From: a virus
IMG/VR virus record: IMGVR_UViG_3300045988_007371
Coordinates: 1-5,935 of that record
Direction: 5' to 3' (one strand)
Length of the DNA stretch: 5,935 bases
A program made the position numbers and the translations under genes. Positions within the stretch are counted from its first letter, which is position 1; every line of letters starts with the position of its first letter. The notes below the pieces were generated by a model. That model worked only from the letters and a program-made list of their open reading frames with translations, did not search any database and had not been told where the DNA came from. Shown here piece by piece: positions 1 through 5,935 of the stretch.

Positions 1-99
1 AAGAAGCTTTGCAAACGAAATTGATTTAGAACTAATCAGAAGGGATTATGAAAATGGGACGACATCGTAAGAAAATGAGCGGCGCAAAAGATCGCCGAA
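1..99. repeat. Terminal redundancy, copy 1 (circular-genome assembly overlap)
   Basis: By direct comparison, bases 1-99 (aagaagctttgcaaacgaaattg...aaagatcgccgaa) are identical to 5837-5935. The repeat cuts through coding sequence: it holds the 3' end of the 75-aa ORF and the 5' part of the J-like ORF. That is what a circular genome written past its own start looks like. Implied unit length is 5,836 nt. Confidence 0.97.
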
Positions 100-176
100 T
101 GTTCAACGTAACTGCACGAAAGACGAAAACTATCAACCTTAGCCAGAAGCCCATGCGCGGTGGTATCCGGCTGTAA
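48..176 (+). CDS. Small basic DNA-binding/packaging protein (phiX174 J-like; gokushovirus VP8-like), 42 aa
   Basis: Hand translation gives MKMGRHRKKMSGAKDRRMFNVTARKTKTINLSQKPMRGGIRL, with stop TAA at 174-176. It is very rich in Arg/Lys and ends in PMRGGIRL, the C-terminal signature I recognise from gokushovirus small DNA-binding proteins. An alternative start is the in-frame ATG at 54, giving 40 aa. The purine-rich gaaggga at 38-44 could serve either start. The ORF is below the size cutoff of the supplied track. A truncated second copy begins at 5884 inside the terminal repeat. Confidence 0.8.
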   Translation: MKMGRHRKKMSGAKDRRMFNVTARKTKTINLSQKPMRGGIRL

Positions 177-192
177 AAGAAAGGAAAAGACA

Positions 193-432
193 ATGGAACA
201 TCTGTATTATGGACTGTGGGACAACGTAGCAAAGTGCTATGCGTGGGTAGGCGAAAGCAAGAATAACGCAACCTTTGCGCGTATGTGCAATGTTATGGAA
301 AAGGACGAAAAGACTTTTGTCGGACAGAGTCCGGAAGACTACATCGGATACCGGCTGGCAACATTCAACGATGAGACCGGCACCTTCACCAACGACAAAG
401 AGAAAGCATGGGAGGGCAAGCCGCATGAATAA
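193..432 (+). CDS. Conserved microvirus nonstructural protein (gokushovirus VP5/ORF5-like), 79 aa
   Basis: This is the track ORF 160..432. I prefer the ATG at 193 (MEHLYYGLWDNVAKCYAW...), which has AAGGA at 181-185 seven nt upstream. Position 160 is a GTG lying inside the J-like gene. The pattern Y..WD......W....N...A.R ... SPEDYIGYRLATFNDETGTF resembles the PEDY/F..(Y/L)..G.FDD.TG motif of the small nonstructural protein found in many gokushoviruses. The function call comes from memory of that family, not from a search. Confidence 0.75.
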   Translation: MEHLYYGLWDNVAKCYAWVGESKNNATFARMCNVMEKDEKTFVGQSPEDYIGYRLATFNDETGTFTNDKEKAWEGKPHE

Positions 433-823
433 ACGATACGAAGAAGGGCGAGAGCCCTTCTTTTCTGAAAGCGGAGAAAAATTCAGAAAGCAATACGTCT
501 GGACAAAAGACGAAAAAGGGCAAGAAGTGCTGCAAGAAACAGAACCGATCGACATTCAGCAAGAAATCGAAAGCTATGCAGACGAATGCGACATCAAAAA
601 CATTGTCCGAAAAGCAAGTTTTGACCCGCAGTTCCTTGAAAGCTTATCCGAAGGAGCAATGACGGGGGAAGAAGTGGACATCACCGAATTTCCGCAAAAC
701 ATTCATGAGTATCACCGCATGATTGCGACCGCACAGGCAAACGCAATGAAGCTTGAAGAGCTACAAAAAATGGAAGCGGAAAAAGCAAAAGCAGAACCTG
801 AAGCAAAGGAGGAAGAAAAGTGA
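425..823 (+). CDS. Internal scaffolding protein (VP3-like), 132 aa
   Basis: Same frame as track ORF 275..823, but position 275 is a TTG with no RBS. The ATG at 425 has GGAGG at 411-415 nine nt upstream and overlaps the upstream stop (ATGAATAA, 425-432). The product MNKRYEEGREPFF...ESYADECDIKNIVRKASFDPQFLESL...ITEFPQNIHEYHRMIATAQANAMKLEE... is acidic and helical, about 130 aa, and sits immediately upstream of VP1. All of this fits gokushovirus VP3. Its stop TGA (821-823) overlaps the VP1 GTG start. Confidence 0.8.
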   Translation: MNKRYEEGREPFFSESGEKFRKQYVWTKDEKGQEVLQETEPIDIQQEIESYADECDIKNIVRKASFDPQFLESLSEGAMTGEEVDITEFPQNIHEYHRMIATAQANAMKLEELQKMEAEKAKAEPEAKEEEK

Positions 824-2511
824 ATCGAAACAATGAACGACACTTCAACCAAATCCCAGAAATGAAAGCAAGTCGAACACGATTCAACCGAGACCAGACG
901 ATTTTAACAACATTTGATTCCGGGAAATTGATTCCGTTTTACGTTGACGAAGTATTGCCGGGCGACACATTTAGAGTAAACACGACAGCAATCATCAGAA
1001 TGACGACACCGAAGTTTCCAGTGATGGATGATGCATTCATCGACTTCTATTACTTCTATTGTCCAAATCGCATCCTATGGAAAAACTTTAAACAATTCAT
1101 GGGAGAAGTAGAAAATAAACCCTGGATGCCAGTAAAAACGTACAAAGTCCCAGAAATAAAAATCGAAGGAAGTGAAACCTCAGCAAAACCACTCGAAAAA
1201 AGTATCTTAGATTACATGGGCGTTCCAACGAAAGTAAAAAGACCCTTCAAAATTAACGCATTGCCAATCAGAGCATATGTAATGATCTGGAACGAATTTT
1301 TTAGAGACGAAAATGTAGGCAATGCGGCAGTATGGTCAGACGAAGACAGTGATGTAACATACGCACAAAGCTACAATGAAAACTCAACCAACGCGGACAA
1401 AATGCAAAAAGAGTTGAATGAAGCAATAACCGGCGGGCTCTGTCTACCGGTAAACAAGTTCCACGACTACTTCTCAAGCTGTCTCCCCTATGCACAACGT
1501 GGGCCGGAAGTGACGCTGCCAATGCAAGGCAATGCAAGAATATCCGGATACACAAATGATAAATTTAACGAAAAAGCACCACTATATGCAAACAGCTTTT
1601 TTGACGGAAGCACAAACCCGGGCAACATCAAAGACAAAATGTATGCAATCGCAGCAGATGGAGGCACAGGATCAGCATACTTAGCCATTGGAGACGGAAC
1701 AGGCAGTGACCATAAAGTAGTATACCTAGGCGCAGACCTTGGAAGCGTAACCGCAGCAACCATCAACGACTTGCGAAAAGCCGTAGCAGTGCAACAGTAC
1801 TACGAGGCGCTGGCAAGAGGCGGCAGCCGTTACCGCGAGCAGGTACAAGCATTGTGGGATGTAATTATCTCAGATAAAACTGTACAGATCCCGGAATATC
1901 TTGGCGGCGGCAGATACCGCGTCAATGTTAACCAGATCGTACAGACAAGCGGACAGCAGACCGACAAAGACACGCCTATTGGTGAAACCGGTGCAATGTC
2001 AGTAACACCCATCAATGAAAGCAGTTTTACGAAATCTTTCGAGGAACACGGATTCGTAATCGGTGTATGTTGTGTACGACACAATCACAGTTACCAGCAA
2101 GGGCTTGAACGTTTCTGGAGTCGAACGGACAGACTGGACTATTACGTACCTCAGTTCGCAAATCTTGGCGAACAGCCTGTCAAAAAGAAAGAAATCATGC
2201 TAACCGGCACAGCAACAGACGAAGAAACTTTCGGTTACCAGGAAGCATGGGCAGACTACAGAATGAAGCCGAATCGAGTATCCGGCCTCATGAGAAGCAA
2301 CGCAATCGGAACGCTGGACTTCTGGCACTATGCCGACAACTATTCAACCGTACCAACACTATCGCAGGAGTGGATGGCAGAAGGAAAGAAAGAAATCGCA
2401 AGAACATTGATCGTGCAGGATGAGCCGCAGTTCTTCGGCGCAATCCGAGTAGCAAACAAAACAACAAGACGTATGCCGTTGTACAGCGTACCGGGCTTGT
2501 ACAAACTGTAA
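820..2511 (+). CDS. Major capsid protein (VP1, phiX174 F-like), 563 aa
   Basis: GTG start at 820, preceded by AAGGAGG (806-812) with a 7-nt spacer. The N-terminal region RNNERHFNQIPEMKASRTRFNRDQTILTTFDSGKLIPFYVDEVLPGDTFRVNTTAIIRMTTPKFPVMDDAFIDFYYFYCPNRILW matches the conserved Microviridae capsid N-terminus (..HF..vP...i.RS.F......T.F..G.LiP....EvlPGDtf...). The size is typical of gokushovirus VP1. Confidence 0.97.
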   Translation: MNRNNERHFNQIPEMKASRTRFNRDQTILTTFDSGKLIPFYVDEVLPGDTFRVNTTAIIRMTTPKFPVMDDAFIDFYYFYCPNRILWKNFKQFMGEVENKPWMPVKTYKVPEIKIEGSETSAKPLEKSILDYMGVPTKVKRPFKINALPIRAYVMIWNEFFRDENVGNAAVWSDEDSDVTYAQSYNENSTNADKMQKELNEAITGGLCLPVNKFHDYFSSCLPYAQRGPEVTLPMQGNARISGYTNDKFNEKAPLYANSFFDGSTNPGNIKDKMYAIAADGGTGSAYLAIGDGTGSDHKVVYLGADLGSVTAATINDLRKAVAVQQYYEALARGGSRYREQVQALWDVIISDKTVQIPEYLGGGRYRVNVNQIVQTSGQQTDKDTPIGETGAMSVTPINESSFTKSFEEHGFVIGVCCVRHNHSYQQGLERFWSRTDRLDYYVPQFANLGEQPVKKKEIMLTGTATDEETFGYQEAWADYRMKPNRVSGLMRSNAIGTLDFWHYADNYSTVPTLSQEWMAEGKKEIARTLIVQDEPQFFGAIRVANKTTRRMPLYSVPGLYKL

Positions 2512-2550: not shown

Positions 2551-3414
2551 ATGAGCGCATTATCAGGACTCTTAACAGGGCTAAACGTAGCCGGAAACAT
2601 TGCAAGCACAATTGGAACATTTGCAAACGCTGGTAAACAAGTCGCCGGAATATTTGGCGGATGGGGTCAGGAAGGCAACAGCCAAAGCCAAGGCGGCAGT
2701 GTAAGCCAAGGCGGCGGTCATTCAGAAAGCGGAAGCTATTCGGGCACAAACGTGCAACAGGTAAACGACTGGCTAAAACAAGCATATGCATACCAAGGGC
2801 AAGAAGCAGCCATGCAAGGTAAATACAACAGTCAGAGTATGCTTAAACAAATGGGGTACAACACCTTACAAGCAATCATGCAAGGCATATATAACCACAT
2901 TGAAAACGGCGTAGCAATGAACTACAACAGTGCAGAAGCACTAGCAAACCGTGAATGGCAAGAACACATGTCAAGCACAGCATACCAGCGTGCAGTTGAA
3001 GACATGAAAAAAGCGGGACTTAATCCAATCTTAGCTTTTTCAAACGGCGGAGCAAGCACACCGGGGGGAAGCGCAGGAACAATTAGCGGTGCAAGTATGG
3101 GACTAGCAAGCAGCAGCGCACTAGGAGTAAGCAGAAGCGGCGGATTCGTACCGAACGCATACGAAAGCAACAGCTGGTCGAAAAGCGACTGGTACAACGC
3201 CGCAGAAAGCTGGCAACAGATGCTCAGTAATACACACATGACGCCCTATGGACTGACAAAAGCATTAACAAAAATTGCAAACGGCACAGACGATGCAATC
3301 AAAGATGCAGTAAAGCCAACAACAAAACAACCAAACAAGAAAAACTACATTAAACCGCAAGACAAAACGGGCAAATACGGAGAAAAAAGGGAACCGGGTG
3401 ATTATTTAAAATGA
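2551..3414 (+). CDS. Minor capsid / DNA pilot protein (VP2, phiX174 H-like), 287 aa
   Basis: It has a Gly/Ala-rich hydrophobic N-terminus (MSALSGLLTGLNVAGNIASTIGTFANAG), then a G/S/Q low-complexity region. It also carries NREWQEHMSSTAYQRAVEDMKKAGLNPILAF, which I recognise as the conserved core of gokushovirus VP2 (..sNTAyQR.v.DlkaAGLNP.La). Position after VP1 and before the rep gene fits. Confidence 0.92.
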   Translation: MSALSGLLTGLNVAGNIASTIGTFANAGKQVAGIFGGWGQEGNSQSQGGSVSQGGGHSESGSYSGTNVQQVNDWLKQAYAYQGQEAAMQGKYNSQSMLKQMGYNTLQAIMQGIYNHIENGVAMNYNSAEALANREWQEHMSSTAYQRAVEDMKKAGLNPILAFSNGGASTPGGSAGTISGASMGLASSSALGVSRSGGFVPNAYESNSWSKSDWYNAAESWQQMLSNTHMTPYGLTKALTKIANGTDDAIKDAVKPTTKQPNKKNYIKPQDKTGKYGEKREPGDYLK

Positions 3415-4430
3415 GTTGCTACAAGCCATTAATAAGGCTGTACAACCCGAACGATAAAGACATTAGCGGGAGGGTGTATTCACTCTCCCGCATTTCTCAG
3501 TTAGCGGGAAAACAGCTCAAATATGAAGATCTGATGTACAGGAAAGATATAATGTTGATACCATGCGGACAATGTATCGGATGTAGAATCAGACAAAGAG
3601 AGGACTGGACAACACGAATAGAATTAGAAGCACGAGATTATCCAAAAGAACAAGTCTGGTTTATTACGCTAACCTATGATGACGATCATGTACCGGGCAT
3701 GATAATAAACACAGGCGAAATCATGCGAAAAGTGCAATACGTCTGGAAGCCGGGAGAGAAGCGCCCTGAAAGCGTCCAAACGTTACTATATCCTGACATT
3801 CAAAAATTCTTAAAACGTCTCAGAAAGGCTTATAGGGGCAAATTACGCTATTTTGTAGCGGGAGAATACGGAGAACAGACAGCAAGACCGCACTATCACA
3901 TGATTCTATACGGGTGGCAACCAACAGACCTTGAACACCTGTACAAGATACAACACAACGGATACTTTACAAGTAAATGGCTAGAAAACCTATGGGGCAT
4001 GGGTCAAATACAGATAGCACAAGCAGTGCCAGAAACCTATAGATATGTTGCAGGGTACGTCACAAAAAAAATGTATGAGATAGACGGCCAAAAAGCAAAC
4101 GCATACTACGAACTAGGGCAAACAAAACCATTCGCATGCATGAGCCTAAAGCCGGGTTTAGGCGAACACTATTACCAAGAGCACAAAGAAGAGATCTGGC
4201 GGCAAGGATATATCCAATGCACAAACGGCAAACACGCACAAATTCCGCGCTATTATGAAAAAATGATGGAAGCAGAAAACCCACAAAGATTATGGAGAAT
4301 TAAACAGAACAGACAAGCAGCAGCAATTGCAGAAAACCGGCTAAAGTACGAAAATGCAGACTTTGCAGAACAATGTAAAACAAAAGAGAGAGTAATAAAG
4401 AAGCAGATGAAGAAGAGAGGGACACTTTAA
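3411..4430 (+). CDS. Replication initiation protein (VP4, phiX174 A-like HUH endonuclease), 339 aa
   Basis: The ATG overlaps the VP2 stop (ATGA, 3411-3414). Rolling-circle Rep motifs are present. These are a Cys cluster PCGQCIGCR (aa 51-59), motif I FITLTY (aa 84-89), HUH motif II PHYHMILYG (HYH at nt 3891-3899) and motif III YVAGYVTKK (nt 4044-4070). Motif III has two tyrosines spaced YxxxY, as in the phiX174 A protein. Confidence 0.96.
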   Translation: MSCYKPLIRLYNPNDKDISGRVYSLSRISQLAGKQLKYEDLMYRKDIMLIPCGQCIGCRIRQREDWTTRIELEARDYPKEQVWFITLTYDDDHVPGMIINTGEIMRKVQYVWKPGEKRPESVQTLLYPDIQKFLKRLRKAYRGKLRYFVAGEYGEQTARPHYHMILYGWQPTDLEHLYKIQHNGYFTSKWLENLWGMGQIQIAQAVPETYRYVAGYVTKKMYEIDGQKANAYYELGQTKPFACMSLKPGLGEHYYQEHKEEIWRQGYIQCTNGKHAQIPRYYEKMMEAENPQRLWRIKQNRQAAAIAENRLKYENADFAEQCKTKERVIKKQMKKRGTL

Positions 4431-4448
4431 CAGTGTCATAGTGTCACC

Positions 4449-4482
4449 TAGCCCAGTGCCTATCAAGTAAGGTACTGGGCTA
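4449..4482 (+). other. Stem-loop immediately downstream of rep (weak terminator or ssDNA structural/origin element)
   Basis: TAGCCCAGTgCC (4449-4460) pairs with GGtACTGGGCTA (4471-4482). This gives 12 positions with one G:T mismatch and a 10-nt loop, TATCAAGTAA. No clean T-tract follows (ttgtcgtc), so it is not a textbook terminator. It is preceded by the tandem AGTGTCA AGTGTCA (4432-4438 and 4440-4446) and a small GACACT/AGTGTC hairpin spanning the rep stop codon. Confidence 0.5.
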
Positions 4483-4537
4483 TTGTCGTCTAAGGACGCC
4501 ATGTATCGAACTATTCAGTCTATCAAATAATCCAATT

Positions 4538-4582
4538 CGCACGTGCGCACACGCGCGATAGCGCGCACGCGCGCACGCGCGA
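4538..4582. repeat. GC-rich alternating purine-pyrimidine (CG/CA) tract with nested palindromes and short tandem repeats
   Basis: The sequence is cgcacgtgcgcacacgcgcg-ata-gcgcgcacgcgcgcacgcgcg. It contains perfect Y/R alternation over 4538-4557 (20 nt) and 4561-4581 (21 nt). It also holds the 10-bp palindrome CGCACGTGCG (4538-4547), the tandem GCGCGCAC GCGCGCAC (4561-4576), and the imperfect direct repeat GCGCAC(AC)GCGCGATA (4545-4560 and 4571-4584). It stands out sharply against the A-rich remainder of the genome. Confidence 0.9.
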
Positions 4583-4600
4583 TATAATATTAACTTGTTG

Positions 4601-4621
4601 TAGGAGTAGTAGTAGTAGTAG
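4601..4621. repeat. (TAG)n trinucleotide microsatellite
   Basis: The sequence tag gag tag tag tag tag tag has five perfect TAG units (4607-4621), preceded by TAG and GAG. It reads as stop codons in one + frame. It also explains the spurious YYYYY run in the minus-strand track ORF 4480..4674. Confidence 0.95.
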
Positions 4622-4794
4622 TGGAAAAGTTGAAAAGTACTAAAATTTAACGTTAAAGCGTAAATAAAAAGCAAAAAACGCCGTTGAAAGTTTTGTTGAA
4701 AAATTGTTGAATTGTTGAAAGTCCGTCAAAATGACGAAAATCATTGTGCAACATTTTGTGGAAAACCTGTTGAAAGTGTTGAAAGTGTTGAAAA
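4621..4794 (+). repeat. Array of direct GTTGAAA-type heptamer repeats (iteron-like), ending in three tandem 9-mers
   Basis: Perfect GTTGAAA occurs at 4629, 4683, 4695, 4714, 4769, 4778 and 4787. Variants are GTGGAAA at 4621 and 4758, GTTGAAT at 4706, GTTAAAG at 4652 and GTCAAAA at 4725. All share one orientation. The last three form cTGTTGAAA gTGTTGAAA gTGTTGAAA (4767-4793). With equal base frequencies a given 7-mer is expected about 0.36 times in 5.8 kb. Confidence 0.9.
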
Positions 4795-5153
4795 CGCGCA
4801 CAGCGCTTACAATGAATGGATTAGCCGAGCTCCGCATACGCTCCGCACGGCAAGGCGCTAAAGCGCTTTCGAAACAAAGGAGCAAAACCGGGTTGCAAGA
4901 GAAGGTTACAATTTTATTACAAAACAGCAAAATCATTGAAAAACCTATTGACAAGGAGTATAATAAAGTCAGAGGAAGGAAGGTGTTCAGAATGACGCTG
5001 AAAAGCTACAAAATTGAAATGACAAACAAAGAAACAGGCAAAAGAGAAATTCGCCACACGCTGGCAGAAAGCAAAAAACTTGCAAAGTGTCTCATCTGGA
5101 CAAAAAAAGACATCATAAGCCAATGGAAGATAAACAAAATAGAAGAGGGTTAA
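4731..5153 (+). CDS. Hypothetical protein, maximal ORF model (140 aa); N-terminal 87 codons uncertain
   Basis: Track ORF. For: the frame stays open for about 91 codons upstream of 4992 in an A-rich strand, where I estimate roughly 6% of random codons would be stops. That is unlikely by chance. Against: there is no RBS before the ATG at 4731. The 5' end is built from the GTTGAAA repeats (encoding LKVLKVLK), and the consensus promoter lies inside it. An intermediate start is TTG at 4893, with AAGGAG (4877-4882) 10 nt upstream. This is an alternative model of the same frame as the 4992 entry. Confidence 0.4.
   Translation: MTKIIVQHFVENLLKVLKVLKTRTALTMNGLAELRIRSARQGAKALSKQRSKTGLQEKVTILLQNSKIIEKPIDKEYNKVRGRKVFRMTLKSYKIEMTNKETGKREIRHTLAESKKLAKCLIWTKKDIISQWKINKIEEG
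4829..4874. promoter_or_regulatory. Operator-like phased direct repeat and overlapping palindromes upstream of the accessory-cassette promoter
   Basis: GCTCCGCA occurs at 4829-4836 and 4840-4847, an 11-nt period. An 18-bp near-palindrome AAGGCGCT-AA-AGCGCTTT (4852-4869) contains the perfect palindrome AAAGCGCTTT (4860-4869) and overlaps TTTCGAAA (4867-4874). TTACAA is also repeated at 4906 and 4917, again 11 nt apart, just upstream of the -35 box. The regulatory role is inferred. Confidence 0.4.
4936..4964 (+). promoter_or_regulatory. Sigma70-type promoter for the accessory cassette
   Basis: The -35 box is TTGAAA (4936-4941). A spacer of exactly 17 nt (4942-4958) separates it from a consensus -10 TATAAT (4959-4964). 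The predicted start near 4971 lies just upstream of the GGAAGGAAGGTG RBS and the ATG at 4992. Confidence 0.65.
4992..5153 (+). CDS. Hypothetical small protein, promoter-proximal start model (53 aa)
   Basis: The ATG at 4992 has GGAAGGAAGGTG ending 6 nt upstream and sits about 20 nt downstream of the predicted transcription start. The product is MTLKSYKIEMTNKETGKREIRHTLAESKKLAKCLIWTKKDIISQWKINKIEEG. It is lysine-rich, has no hydrophobic segment and matches no family I recognise. The stop at 5151-5153 is 5 nt before the M15 start. Confidence 0.5.
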   Translation: MTLKSYKIEMTNKETGKREIRHTLAESKKLAKCLIWTKKDIISQWKINKIEEG

Positions 5154-5158
5154 CAAAC

Positions 5159-5551
5159 ATGGAAATCAAAGCATATGTAGTAGACGAGCAAGGAAACGAA
5201 CAAATCACAGACCACTTCAAAGTGAAAGAGTTTGCTTGCAAAGACGGGTCACCAATCGTATTCGTTGACGAATATCTAGCAGTCATTCTAGAGATCGCAA
5301 GAAAAAAAATCAATAAGCCGATTGTCATCACGAGCGGATACCGCACAGTAAGCCACAACAAAAAAGTAGGCGGAGCAAAATATAGCTATCACATGCGCGG
5401 CATGGCGGCAGACATCAGAGCGAACGGAGTGACGCCAAAAGAACTTGCAAAAGTACTAAACGACATCGTACCAAACAGCGGCGGAATCATCGTATATAAC
5501 AATTGGGTACATTTCGATACAAGAAATGAAAAATACAGAAAGGGGGTATAA
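5159..5551 (+). CDS. Peptidase M15 family (M15A/Peptidase_M15_3, Zn D-Ala-D-Ala carboxypeptidase-like) cell-wall hydrolase, 130 aa
   Basis: Same frame as track ORF 5087..5551. I prefer the ATG at 5159 (MEIKAYVV...), which has GAGGG (5145-5149) 9 nt upstream and lies just after the upstream stop. The sequence FKVKEFACKDGS...KPIVITSGYRTVSHNKKVGGAKYSYHMRGMAADI...VHFDTR matches the M15 signature SGYR...N..vGG...S.H..G.A.D....vH.D. The Zn ligands are H78-x6-D85 and H118 (H78 codon at 5390-5392). There is no signal peptide or TM segment. Confidence 0.93.
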   Translation: MEIKAYVVDEQGNEQITDHFKVKEFACKDGSPIVFVDEYLAVILEIARKKINKPIVITSGYRTVSHNKKVGGAKYSYHMRGMAADIRANGVTPKELAKVLNDIVPNSGGIIVYNNWVHFDTRNEKYRKGV

Positions 5552-5552
5552 A

Positions 5553-5675
5553 ATGGCGCTGATTTCCATTAAAGACGTCAAGCAAGCAATCCGCATTATG
5601 ATGCAGATTCTCGAAAAACTTGACGAGATCTATCACGCGCTGCACGACAGCATCAACGAAAACGAAAAGGAGTAA
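5553..5675 (+). CDS. Hypothetical small helical protein, 40 aa
   Basis: Hand translation gives MALISIKDVKQAIRIMMQILEKLDEIYHALHDSINENEKE, with stop TAA at 5673-5675. A GGGGG run (5542-5546) lies 6 nt upstream of the ATG. The ORF exactly fills the gap between the M15 gene and the next ORF, starting 1 nt after the M15 stop. It is too short for the ORF track and has no recognisable family. Confidence 0.55.
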   Translation: MALISIKDVKQAIRIMMQILEKLDEIYHALHDSINENEKE

Positions 5676-5678
5676 ACC

Positions 5679-5906
5679 ATGATGCACAAGACATGGAACG
5701 TAAGAGACCAGACCACAGAAGCACTAGAAGAGCTACTCATACGAAAATTAAAAGAAATTGATGACAATTACAAAATGCTTAAAAAAGTGTCAAATATCGA
5801 AGACGCTAAAAAGCTAGTAGATGAAATGTGGCGAATAAGAAGCTTTGCAAACGAAATTGATTTAGAACTAATCAGAAGGGATTATGAAAATGGGACGACA
5901 TCGTAA
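5679..5906 (+). CDS. Hypothetical coiled-coil-like protein, 75 aa (crosses the circular junction)
   Basis: Track ORF. AAGGAG (5667-5672) lies 6 nt upstream of the ATG at 5679. The product MMHKTWNVRDQTTEALEELLIRKLKEIDDNYKMLKKVSNIEDAKKLVDEMWRIRSFANEIDLELIRRDYENGTTS is charged and helical and matches no family I recognise. Its last 23 nt overlap the J-like gene in another frame (window 48-70, equivalent to 5884-5906). Confidence 0.7.
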   Translation: MMHKTWNVRDQTTEALEELLIRKLKEIDDNYKMLKKVSNIEDAKKLVDEMWRIRSFANEIDLELIRRDYENGTTS

Positions 5907-5935
5907 GAAAATGAGCGGCGCAAAAGATCGCCGAA
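5837..5935. repeat. Terminal redundancy, copy 2 (circular-genome assembly overlap)
   Basis: Identical to bases 1-99. It contains the 3' end of the 75-aa ORF and a truncated second copy of the J-like ORF, starting at 5884/5890. Confidence 0.97.

Follow-up and report, generated by a model that had tools for sequence, protein, structure and literature searches.

The window analyzed here, the whole 5,935-nucleotide (nt) stretch of IMG/VR record IMGVR_UViG_3300045988_007371, is a complete circular gokushovirus genome, and our subject is the interval between its replication gene, VP4, and its J-like gene, VP8, above all a conserved noncoding cassette within that interval, here called EL, that we consider a candidate replication origin. 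Because the ends of the window repeat over 99 nt (bases 1-99 are identical to 5837-5935, an assembly overlap), the true circle is 5836 nt, a length that falls within the reference range for the Gokushovirinae (approximately 4.4-6.3 kb). Every gene is on the + strand, and the core families of the subfamily are all found there: Phage_F (1e-132), REP_ORF2-G2P (3e-17), Chlamy_scaf (7e-11), and Phage_ORF5 (5e-10) in Pfam, and the pilot protein (1e-125) in PHROGs. The interval, measured from the stop codon of VP4 to the start codon of VP8, is 1453 nt long, or 24.9% of the genome. It contains, in order, a hairpin with a conserved loop (hp), a CG-rich palindrome, EL, a second conserved block (EL2), a promoter, a cargo slot that is occupied in this genome by a 53-amino-acid (aa) gene (o53), an M15 peptidase gene, genes for proteins of 40 and 75 aa (o40 and o75), and finally VP8 (Table 1).

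A first-pass annotation of this DNA, made from its letters alone, had described the interval as a self-contained accessory module of about 1.45 kb, inserted between VP4 and VP8, that expands the genome by roughly 25%. Its measurements hold up, the interval adding about 25% relative to reference gokushoviruses of 4.4-4.6 kb, as does its report of a near-consensus promoter, TTGAAA-N17-TATAAT, which is the best promoter-like site in the window on either strand. The four packed open reading frames (ORFs; 4992-5906) that it placed behind this promoter, each with a ribosome-binding site, are likewise as described; o53, the M15 gene, o40, and o75 all have Shine-Dalgarno sites of the AGGA/GGAG/GGGG type. 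Its statement that the M15 peptidase alone is recognizable was also correct; none of the other module proteins could be assigned to a named family with Pfam, PHROGs, or NCBIfam. The long structured noncoding stretch that the annotation described is real in part: folding is stronger than that of shuffled DNA only at 4431-4600 (DNA fold of -36.3 kcal/mol, z -4.65), whereas shuffled versions of 4586-4795 and 4790-4935 are about as stable as the native DNA (z -0.63 and -0.28). A search of both strands of the whole window against all Rfam families gave no match at E ≤ 1, and a tRNA scan of the window found none.

The larger claims of that annotation fared less well when relatives were taken into account. 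Our comparison set of 141 genomes comprises 20 GenBank records, 120 IMG/VR contigs, and the window, each rotated to start at VP4. The dominant order in this set is VP4-hairpin-EL-(EL2)-slot-M15-o40-o75-VP8-VP5-VP3-VP1-VP2, and in 135 relatives the VP4-VP8 interval, which varies from 124 to 2261 nt (median 1247), keeps its parts in the same order; it is not an insertion peculiar to this genome. The interval had been said to hold nothing of the conserved core, but its noncoding part contains the most conserved sequence of the group, and o40 and o75 are widely conserved. Nor does the promoter belong to a module: because a gene-strand sigma-70 site of at least 10/12 lies in this interval in 128 of the 141 genomes, and is the sole such site in 114 of them, we consider it the main promoter of the phage. 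Comparing codon usage between module and core, a check that the annotation had proposed, disclosed no difference (relative synonymous codon usage, r = 0.83, against r = 0.64 for VP1 versus VP2+VP4). Its expectation of selection on the small ORFs was borne out; all three are under purifying selection, with ratios of nonsynonymous to synonymous substitution (dN/dS) of 0.09 for o53, 0.19 for o40, and 0.29 for o75, to be compared with 0.24 for VP8 and 0.23 for VP5. Since the same order recurs across the 141 genomes, the small genes are under purifying selection, the promoter keeps its position, and codon usage is core-like, we are highly confident that the segment is a clade-wide architecture of mammalian-gut gokushoviruses and not a private insertion. 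The same segment is present in hundreds of gut gokushoviruses. In GenBank, matches to the module or to its noncoding DNA were found in 45 to 48 microvirus records, and the 45 module matches all come from mammalian gut or feces; Human gut gokushovirus SH-CHD5 (KX513868) and Gokushovirus WZ-2015a (KT264791) are approximately 84% identical to the window in DNA sequence over about 82% of the module. In the 45 GenBank records with these features, o40, o75, the slot, the promoter, and the noncoding cassette all go unannotated.

Table 1. Coordinates of the features discussed, numbered as in the 5,935-nt window except where a reference genome is named
Feature	Position	Strand	Remarks
VP8/J-like	48-176	+	core gene
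VP5	193-432	+	core gene
VP3	425-823	+	core gene
VP1	820-2511	+	core gene
VP2	2551-3414	+	core gene
VP4 (HUH Rep)	3411-4430	+	core gene
GTGTCA repeats (CAGTGTCATAGTGTCACC)	4431-4448	+	directly after VP4 stop
Hairpin hp	4449-4482	+	13-bp stem, loop ATCAAGTA; loop conserved (C-TATCAAG-TA), stem covaries
CG-rich alternating purine/pyrimidine tract	4537-4585		imperfect palindrome with 21-nt arms; strong hairpin as single-stranded DNA
EL cassette, origin-like	4586-4794	+	~205 nt; single-copy, ultra-conserved, unstructured as single-stranded DNA
Nick-like motif TAACTTGTTGTAG	4591-4603	+	resembles phiX174 CAACTTG^ATA
TAG run (TAG GAG TAG TAG TAG TAG TAG)	4601-4621	+	7 trios; 3'-GAT-5' DnaA-trio consensus
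Direct 9-mers	4620 (AGTGGAAAA), 4628, 4682, 4694, 4705, 4713, 4757 (TGTGGAAAA), 4768, 4777, 4786	+	array 4620-4794
N-terminal 87 codons of the "140-aa ORF"	4731-4991	+	not a gene; open frame over end of EL, EL2, and promoter
EL2	4795-4885	+	second ultra-conserved noncoding block; 68/141 genomes
Main sigma-70-type promoter	4936-4964	+	TTGAAA-N17-TATAAT, 11/12; position conserved across clade
o53, 53-aa cargo gene	4992-5153	+	basic; beta-beta-alpha-alpha-beta fold, predicted local distance difference test (pLDDT) 91
Peptidase_M15_3 (LAS-type zinc peptidase)	5159-5551	+	130 aa; Pfam 7e-23
o40, conserved 40-aa gene	5553-5675	+	consensus MALIsiKDvK.AI..Mm.ILEKLDeIYHALhD
o75, conserved 75-aa gene	5679-5906	+	modelled helical hairpin, pLDDT 90.8
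Chp2 hairpin (L143)	~2896-2952		candidate Rep nick site
SpV4 hairpin (L144)	~500-556		candidate Rep nick site
phiMH2K hairpin (L145)	~3289-3345		candidate Rep nick site

EL is the most conserved sequence of this phage group. Its nucleotide identity is 72-95% between genomes whose VP1 proteins are 41-56% and whose VP4 proteins are 38-55% identical, and its ends are sharp in the alignment. Read from left to right, it consists of an AT-rich tract, the nick-like motif TAACTTGTTGTAG, the block nnGTAGTAGTAG, a variable stretch of 5-6 nt, and approximately ten direct TGTTGAAA(A/G) boxes, interrupted by two poorly conserved spacers, that have the consensus TGT(T/G)GAAA(A/G) and are spaced 8-12 nt apart. 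The boxes all face one way (the exact hexamer GTTGAA occurs 7.4 times per EL in that direction and 0.01 times in reverse), and their consensus is identical in the three VP4 clades. Among contigs picked by VP1 similarity alone, 70 of 80 carry exactly one copy of EL, and each of the 42 contigs in that sample with terminal repeats, which are therefore complete, carries exactly one. Beyond these phages the cassette is absent from 72,556 plasmids, where only chance matches were found, and an exact search for its 22-nt core in 185,579 bacterial and archaeal species genomes turned up just two contigs, one a binned microvirus and the other, of 130 kb, a chance match. RNAalifold, applied to 140 aligned EL sequences, found no consensus structure on either strand; a role for EL as structured RNA or single-stranded DNA was rejected for want of a common fold, the hairpin predicted in the middle of the cassette being strong in few lineages.

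The orientation of EL is not fixed. It matches that of the genes in 108 genomes and is inverted in 33, and in a clade whose VP4 is 38% identical it is both inverted and placed between VP2 and VP4. Inversions in place, with the same cassette ends each time, are seen among close relatives, MG945447 being one example; others are found in our loci L004 (1203-1430), L025, L068, L096, and L129. Of the GenBank relatives, KX513876 also belongs to the inverted group and KX513868 to the group in gene orientation. The junctions have GC-rich inverted repeats of 5-6 nt (CGCCGT/ACGGCG in L004 and GCGGT/ACCGC in L025), which suggests that recombination between these flanks is the source of the inversions. 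One contig of 10,711 nt (IMGVR_UViG_3300045988_004182), about twice the length of a genome, has two EL cores in opposite orientation and represents a head-to-head dimer or else an assembly chimera.

The organization of EL recalls the signals at which bacteria open their chromosomes. The bacterial basal unwinding system combines DnaA-boxes, DnaA-trios, and an AT-rich element (Richardson et al. 2016/2019; Pelliciari et al. 2021, PMC8287927; PMC6669920), and in oriC2 of C. difficile the boxes are followed by CTACTACTA and then by the unwinding element, the trio sequence being 5'-CACCTACTACTATTACTACTA-3' (PMC7561715). The complementary strand of EL reads 5'-...TTTTCAAC TTTTCCA CTA CTA CTA CTA CTA CTC CTA CAACAAGTTA ATATTATAT-3', and so has the polarity of the C. 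difficile origin, with boxes, then trios, then a short AT-rich tract where the unwinding element would be. Five of the trios (TAG nnG TAG TAG TAG) are conserved clade-wide, and no (CTA/TAG) run of three or more was found elsewhere in the 141 genomes. The complement of the box, TTTTCAACA or TTTTCCACA, differs by one or two mismatches from TTATCCACA, with all copies in one direction and 8-12 nt apart; the 9-mer at 4757 is an exact relaxed DnaA box. The published rule for recognizing basal unwinding systems asks for one box within two mismatches of TTATCCACA, a second within four, a spacer of 0-16 bp, and at least three trios of the form NAN (PMC8287927). Applied to EL, that rule gives at least five trios. 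Of 140 elements, 108 have near the trios a 9-mer with no more than two mismatches to TTATCCACA, 43 of these being TTTTCCACA, and the spacer between box and trios takes its modal value of 4 bp in 89 of the 140 (range -2 to 16, negative values meaning that the box overlaps the first trio). In the window itself the boxes TTTTCCACT and TTTTCAACT depart from TTATCCACA at two and three positions, respectively. A stricter version of the rule matches EL in 103 of the 141 genomes, matches nothing else in them on either strand, and has no match in shuffled sequences. Our literature searches found no paper tying the Microviridae to DnaA boxes and, judging by titles, none on DnaA-trios and bacteriophage that deals with a phage origin.

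EL also carries what may be a target for the phage's own initiator. The viral-strand origin of phiX174 reads CAACTTG^ATATTAATAAC..., and the similar motif of EL, TAACTTGTTGTAG, is present within one mismatch in all 141 genomes and exactly in most. A candidate VP4 nick would fall between G4597 and T4598 (TAACTTG^TTGTAG). A second motif of the kind lies in the hairpin hp, which follows the VP4 stop, is preceded by GGTGTCAC, and is always in gene orientation; the sequence GGTGTCA(C/A)C is found 5' of the hairpin in all clades, and the clade with the 38%-identical VP4 has a homologous hairpin just 5' of the VP4 start. The reverse complement of the hp loop, TTACTTGATAG, is a Chp2-type loop motif and fits the phiX174/pC194 consensus CTTG^ATA, so that, with the motif in EL, each genome has two nick-like motifs. 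Measured against phiX174, TAACTTG TTG in EL agrees at 6 of the 7 positions before the nick and differs after it, and the hp complement reads TTACTTG ATA. The rest of the 30-bp phiX174 origin, namely its AT spacer and "key" sequence CACTATAGACCAC, does not, by inspection, adjoin either motif. In each of the three isolated reference gokushoviruses, Chp2, SpV4, and phiMH2K, a single strong hairpin (-10.8 to -14.5 kcal/mol) lies between genes, and its loop displays (T/A)ACTTG(A/T)T on the coding strand (TCTACTTGATCTG, TTACTTGTTAT, and CCCTACTTGTTGTAAG, respectively), and this motif is enriched, with 1.36 occurrences per genome on the + strand against 0.20 expected. We know of no gokushovirus origin that has been mapped experimentally. 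The 41 nt around hp (4441-4481) also show an 88% match to MH572423, MH572424, and MH572466, 4.1-kb microviruses associated with Ciona robusta, where the match is on the minus strand within the annotated internal scaffolding gene.

We propose that EL is the replication-origin cassette of the phage, and that TAACTTG^TTGTAG is the recognition and nick motif of VP4, the HUH Rep. Host DnaA would bind the EL boxes on the double-stranded replicative form and spread onto the trios, and its spreading would open the adjoining AT-rich and nick-motif DNA; the DNA so opened could serve as a single-stranded substrate for VP4, could permit episomal replication, or both. Gokushovirus replicative forms can persist as episomes, as has been seen experimentally (PMC7062461). 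Being self-contained, such a cassette could invert or move to another intergenic site without losing its function. Our best reading, offered as an inference, is that the interval is a clade-wide control segment with a portable origin cassette, EL, that recruits host DnaA, and we assign this statement a probability of about 0.5. Its parts do not stand equally. That EL is a cis-acting element of replication seems somewhat more likely than not. That DnaA is the protein which binds it is less likely than not. The fullest version, in which DnaA opens the replicative form for Rep and/or maintains the episome, EL can flip and move, and the packaged strand could be antisense in about one quarter of the genomes, we hold to be distinctly doubtful.

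A number of points weigh against this interpretation. One conserved trio reads nCG in many genomes and breaks the middle-A (NAN) rule. The AT-rich tract that follows the trios is short, approximately 19 nt (CAACAAGTTAATATTATAT, about 80% A+T), before a CG-rich tract begins. The dominant box, TTTTCAACA, has A rather than C at position 6, which is stringent in the DnaA consensus, and the box could have another reader, whether VP4, a Spo0A-like factor (TGTCGAA), or a packaging protein. If EL contains the nick site, then its orientation should set the packaged strand, but strand asymmetry at four-fold degenerate sites is the same in clades with EL in gene orientation (EL>) and in clades with EL inverted (EL<) and shows no such flip; the unflipped asymmetry fits a purely double-stranded role for EL better, or else has another cause. 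A second nick-like motif lies in the hp loop on the noncoding strand, and VP4 might cut there instead of in EL. In addition, the 120 IMG/VR loci were chosen for carrying the motif, so the sample drawn by VP1 similarity is the only unbiased one, and the basis for a host that may be Firmicutes-like, possibly Faecalibacterium, consists solely of the sigma-70 and Shine-Dalgarno signals and the similarity of the M15 protein. Four-fold sites on the coding strand have A at 0.55 and T at 0.09 in the window, A at 0.47 and T at 0.24 in phiMH2K, and T at 0.52 in Chp2 and 0.65 in SpV4; opposite asymmetries within one subfamily could reflect different packaged strands or host codon pressures. We rejected four-fold asymmetry as an indicator of the packaged strand; given its constancy between EL> and EL< and its inconsistency among the reference gokushoviruses, it is uninformative.

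HUH replicons often carry iterons next to their nick sites. EL might be a classical rolling-circle double-strand origin read by VP4 alone, with TAACTTG^TTGTAG as the nick site, TGTTGAAA as the Rep iterons, a coincidental likeness to DnaA sites, and an orientation that sets the packaged strand. The nick-like motif common to the reference gokushovirus loops and phiX174, the single copy in each complete genome, and the cassette-like behavior of EL would all be expected of such an origin. Iterons that serve a Rep are harder to reconcile with a box consensus that is unchanged between VP4 clades only 38% identical, or with a strand asymmetry indifferent to the direction of EL; moreover, the order and polarity of box, spacer, trio, and AT-rich DNA match an unwinding grammar found nowhere else in these genomes, and the hairpin-loop architecture of the reference phages is to be seen in hp, not in EL. 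We regard an origin read by VP4 alone as a serious rival, though less likely than not. A different proposal dispenses with a direct role in replication and makes EL an array of sites for a host regulator, Spo0A-like or a nucleoid protein, that silences or times the main promoter or titrates a factor. The 0A box is TGTCGAA; the TGTTGAA of EL is one mismatch away, and some genomes have TGTCGAA copies. EL also lies 140-350 nt upstream of the main promoter in most genomes, and its independence of orientation fits a double-stranded binding array. However, in the clade with the 38%-identical VP4, where EL is between VP2 and VP4, over 1 kb, including the VP4 gene, separates it from the promoter, there is no promoter-like site inside EL, and the conserved TAACTTGTTGTAG and the TAG run are left without explanation. 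A purely regulatory array seems to us improbable.

The remaining alternatives concern how EL, or the whole segment, came to be where it is. An identity far above that of the surrounding genes, two genomic positions, both orientations, and short GC-rich inverted repeats at the inversion junctions would fit a selfish miniature mobile element, whether a miniature inverted-repeat transposable element, a palindrome-associated transposable element, or an inverton, and in that case the identity would reflect recent transfer instead of function. Every complete genome, however, has exactly one copy, never zero or several; plasmids lack EL, and the scan of the species genomes for its 22-nt core found no copy outside a microvirus contig. 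Conserved blocks alternating with free spacers inside EL indicate selection and not recency, no transposase or invertase partner and no target duplications accompany it, and for an inverton it lacks an internal promoter-like site and has junction repeats of only 5-6 nt. We consider mobility of this kind very improbable. The idea from which the analysis began, a self-contained accessory module that separates rep from the J-like gene, has a promoter of its own, and is retained because its orphan proteins act on the host, can draw on the 24.9% of the genome that the region occupies, on an M15 protein that groups with enzymes of bacteria and tailed phages (45.5% identity to the FP_Toutatis endolysin), on the rarity of o53 and its presence in distant clades, and on a slot with at least 20 unrelated families of small ORFs. 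For the segment as a whole the reading is unlikely and largely refuted by the recurrence of the same segment and order in the 141 genomes, by o40 and o75, which are clade-wide, present without M15, and, in the case of o75, overlapped with VP8, by a promoter that is the only strong one in 114 genomes, by core-like codon usage, and by a noncoding part that is the best-conserved DNA of the clade.

Two further cis elements flank EL. The CG-rich tract, a (CG/CA)n sequence prone to Z-DNA or cruciform formation, separates hp from the AT-rich end of EL; its pattern is kept in most close relatives, and its exact sequence varies. EL2, wherever it occurs, precedes the promoter and keeps gene orientation, and at most of its positions conservation is at least 95%. 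It contains two perfect palindromes, GCGCACAGCGC (4796-4806) and GGCGCTAAAGCGCT (4854-4867), and a hairpin (4824-4851) in which four compensatory pair types are observed (GC/GC, AT/AT, GT/AC, and AC/GT). EL2 could be a complementary-strand origin or an operator upstream of the promoter. An integration site of the XerCD/dif type (Kirchberger & Ochman 2020) was also considered; the AT-rich left end of EL is only loosely dif-like.

The main promoter would transcribe o53, M15, o40, o75, VP8, VP5, VP3, and VP1, as far as an element at 2522-2541. There, directly after VP1, a hairpin (AGCCCGGAGAAATCCGGGCT) followed by a T-run resembles an intrinsic terminator, and it is likely to be the end of the transcript that starts at 4964. 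Canonical -35 and -10 hexamers, together with strong Shine-Dalgarno sites, favor a Firmicutes-like host over one from the Bacteroidetes. A complete 5.7-kb relative (L141, CAVKUS010000079.1) was binned in a metagenome-assembled genome named "Bacteroides sp. CAG:545"; a Bacteroides host is unlikely in view of the sigma-70 and Shine-Dalgarno signals, and the binning of a free phage is weak evidence of host. A scan of genome contigs for the EL core yielded no prophage and no assignable host.

The M15 protein is a confident member of its family (81.2 bits, against a Pfam gathering cutoff of 23.2) and matches the endolysin family phrog_894 (3e-42). Its SYHMRGMAAD aligns with SRHMYGHAAD of the zinc D-Ala-D-Ala carboxypeptidase 1LBU, which accounts for the H-x6-D metal ligands, and the second metal-ligand motif, WVHFD, is present when the sequence is read by eye. 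The gene occurs in 106 of the 141 genomes; the protein clusters with enzymes of bacteria and tailed phages, its closest match outside the microviruses being the endolysin of Faecalibacterium phage FP_Toutatis. M15 is a putative endolysin, as proposed in 2012. By inspection, no holin or signal peptide is evident, the M15 N-terminus not being hydrophobic, and no + strand ORF of at least 30 aa in the module or in overlapping frames resembles a membrane protein.

The small genes fall into two groups, and here the first-pass annotation, which had treated all of them as accessory, was half right. M15 and especially o53 (7/141 genomes) behave as accessory cargo; o40 (109/141) and o75 (93/141) are clade-wide and are present also in genomes without M15, and relatives carry both as ordinary conserved genes, with 546 and 1914 clusters, respectively, at 90% identity, so that under the annotation's own refuting condition these two fail as accessory genes. 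The annotation had offered two readings of the first frame. The 53-aa reading is real, as its dN/dS attests, and the 140-aa reading (4731-5153) is spurious; it was rejected as a gene because it lacks a Shine-Dalgarno site and is interrupted by stops or frameshifting indels in 41 of the 50 relatives that match this DNA, including the closest (96% identity). We conclude that o53 is a real, rare, horizontally exchanged cargo gene. It forms 31 clusters at 90% identity, is always 53 aa long, and keeps 75-92% identity across genomes in which VP4 identity is only 38%. It sits in the hypervariable slot between promoter and M15, which across genomes holds at least 20 unrelated families of small ORFs. 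Examples of slot contents are found at L090 1229-1414, L001 1589-1768, and L002 1572-1940, one family being a 61-aa zinc-ribbon-like ORF (CxxC...CxxC), and the slot seems to attract new small genes in genomes of limited size.

The profile and structure searches that had been suggested for the orphan proteins confirmed that they belong to no named family and gave little else. Nothing significant was found for o53, o40, or o75 in Pfam, PHROGs, or NCBIfam, and hidden Markov models of the three families had no counterpart in Chp2, SpV4, or phiMH2K (E > 0.2). Foldseek gave no significant match for o53 in the PDB (best E = 0.05); weak structural likenesses (template modelling scores of 0.5-0.77) were to ribosomal L18Ae/LX, the crAss001 vertex protein, RNA polymerase epsilon/YkzG, T7 Gp2, and p56, and the matches in BFVD were solely to uncharacterized small phage proteins, a group in which this fold is common. 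For o75, a generic helical hairpin, there was no significant PDB match, and nr lists the identical sequence under the name "MAG TPA: hypothetical protein [Microviridae sp.]". The clusters of o53, o40, and o75 are all on microvirus-sized contigs and unnamed. Because o40 and o75 are in line with VP8-VP5-VP3-VP1, and because the 3' end of o75 overlaps the start of VP8 (5884, equivalent to position 48) by 23 nt, a role for both in the phage's own program is more likely than one in host manipulation.

Few phages are more common in the human gut than gokushoviruses, and their replication origins, host factors, hosts, and modes of lysis have hardly been mapped. Both the M15 gene and the extra length had been known before; it is the unannotated EL and the cargo slot that carry the value of the region. 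EL, one copy of approximately 205 nt conserved far beyond any protein, is a testable candidate for the missing gokushovirus origin. Should DnaA bind it, EL would extend the known DnaA-trio-type modules beyond chromosomes for the first time, would tie a single-stranded DNA phage to the initiator of its host, and would offer a mechanism for plasmid-like persistence of gokushoviruses. The promoter and hypervariable slot show where such tiny genomes accept cargo, and a narrowing of the host to Firmicutes-like bacteria is suggested by the Faecalibacterium-like endolysin and by the sigma-70 and Shine-Dalgarno signals.

Several parts of the segment resemble known systems. The peptidase is the same gene, in the same place downstream of VP4, as the M15_3 peptidases described in human-gut Gokushovirinae and Alpavirinae, whose affinity to Faecalibacterium and possible endolysin role were noted at that time (Roux et al. 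2012, PMC3394797); our comparison reproduces the affinity. GenBank examples include SH-CHD5 (KX513868), whose M15 protein is 90.8% identical to that of the window, and WZ-2015a 43Fra07 (KT264791). Unlike the present annotation, that paper and those records label only the peptidase and "unknown ORFs."

The nick-like motifs invite comparison of EL and hp with other phage origins, known or presumed. The phiX174 origin and the hairpins of Chp2, SpV4, and phiMH2K have the core ACTTG(A/T)T in common with EL; in phiMH2K, the core ACTTGTTGTA of the loop TACTTGTTGTA equals that of the EL motif at 10 of 10 nt, and the Chp2 loop has TACTTGAT in common with the reverse complement of the hp loop. Unlike phiX174 and the reference hairpins, EL presents its motif outside a hairpin and on either strand relative to the genes, and unlike the reference hairpins, hp has its motif on the noncoding strand. 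Rolling-circle plasmids of the pMV158 type have nic and bind loci, with iterons in the double-strand origin. As in EL, a nick motif there stands beside an array of short direct repeats, at one locus per replicon; unlike those plasmids, EL has repeats that do not covary with the Rep, and its Rep is of the phiX174 A-type family.

A further parallel is with the bacterial basal unwinding system, in which 9-mers, spacer, 3'-GAT-5' run, and AT-rich DNA follow one another in the same order and with the same polarity as on the complementary strand of EL. Unlike a chromosomal oriC, which usually lies beside dnaA, EL is found in a 5.8-kb single-stranded DNA phage, and unlike the basal unwinding system, it has approximately ten direct, close-packed boxes, A for C at position 6 of the dominant box, only a short AT-rich tract, and, between the trios and the AT-rich tract, a conserved Rep-like nick motif.

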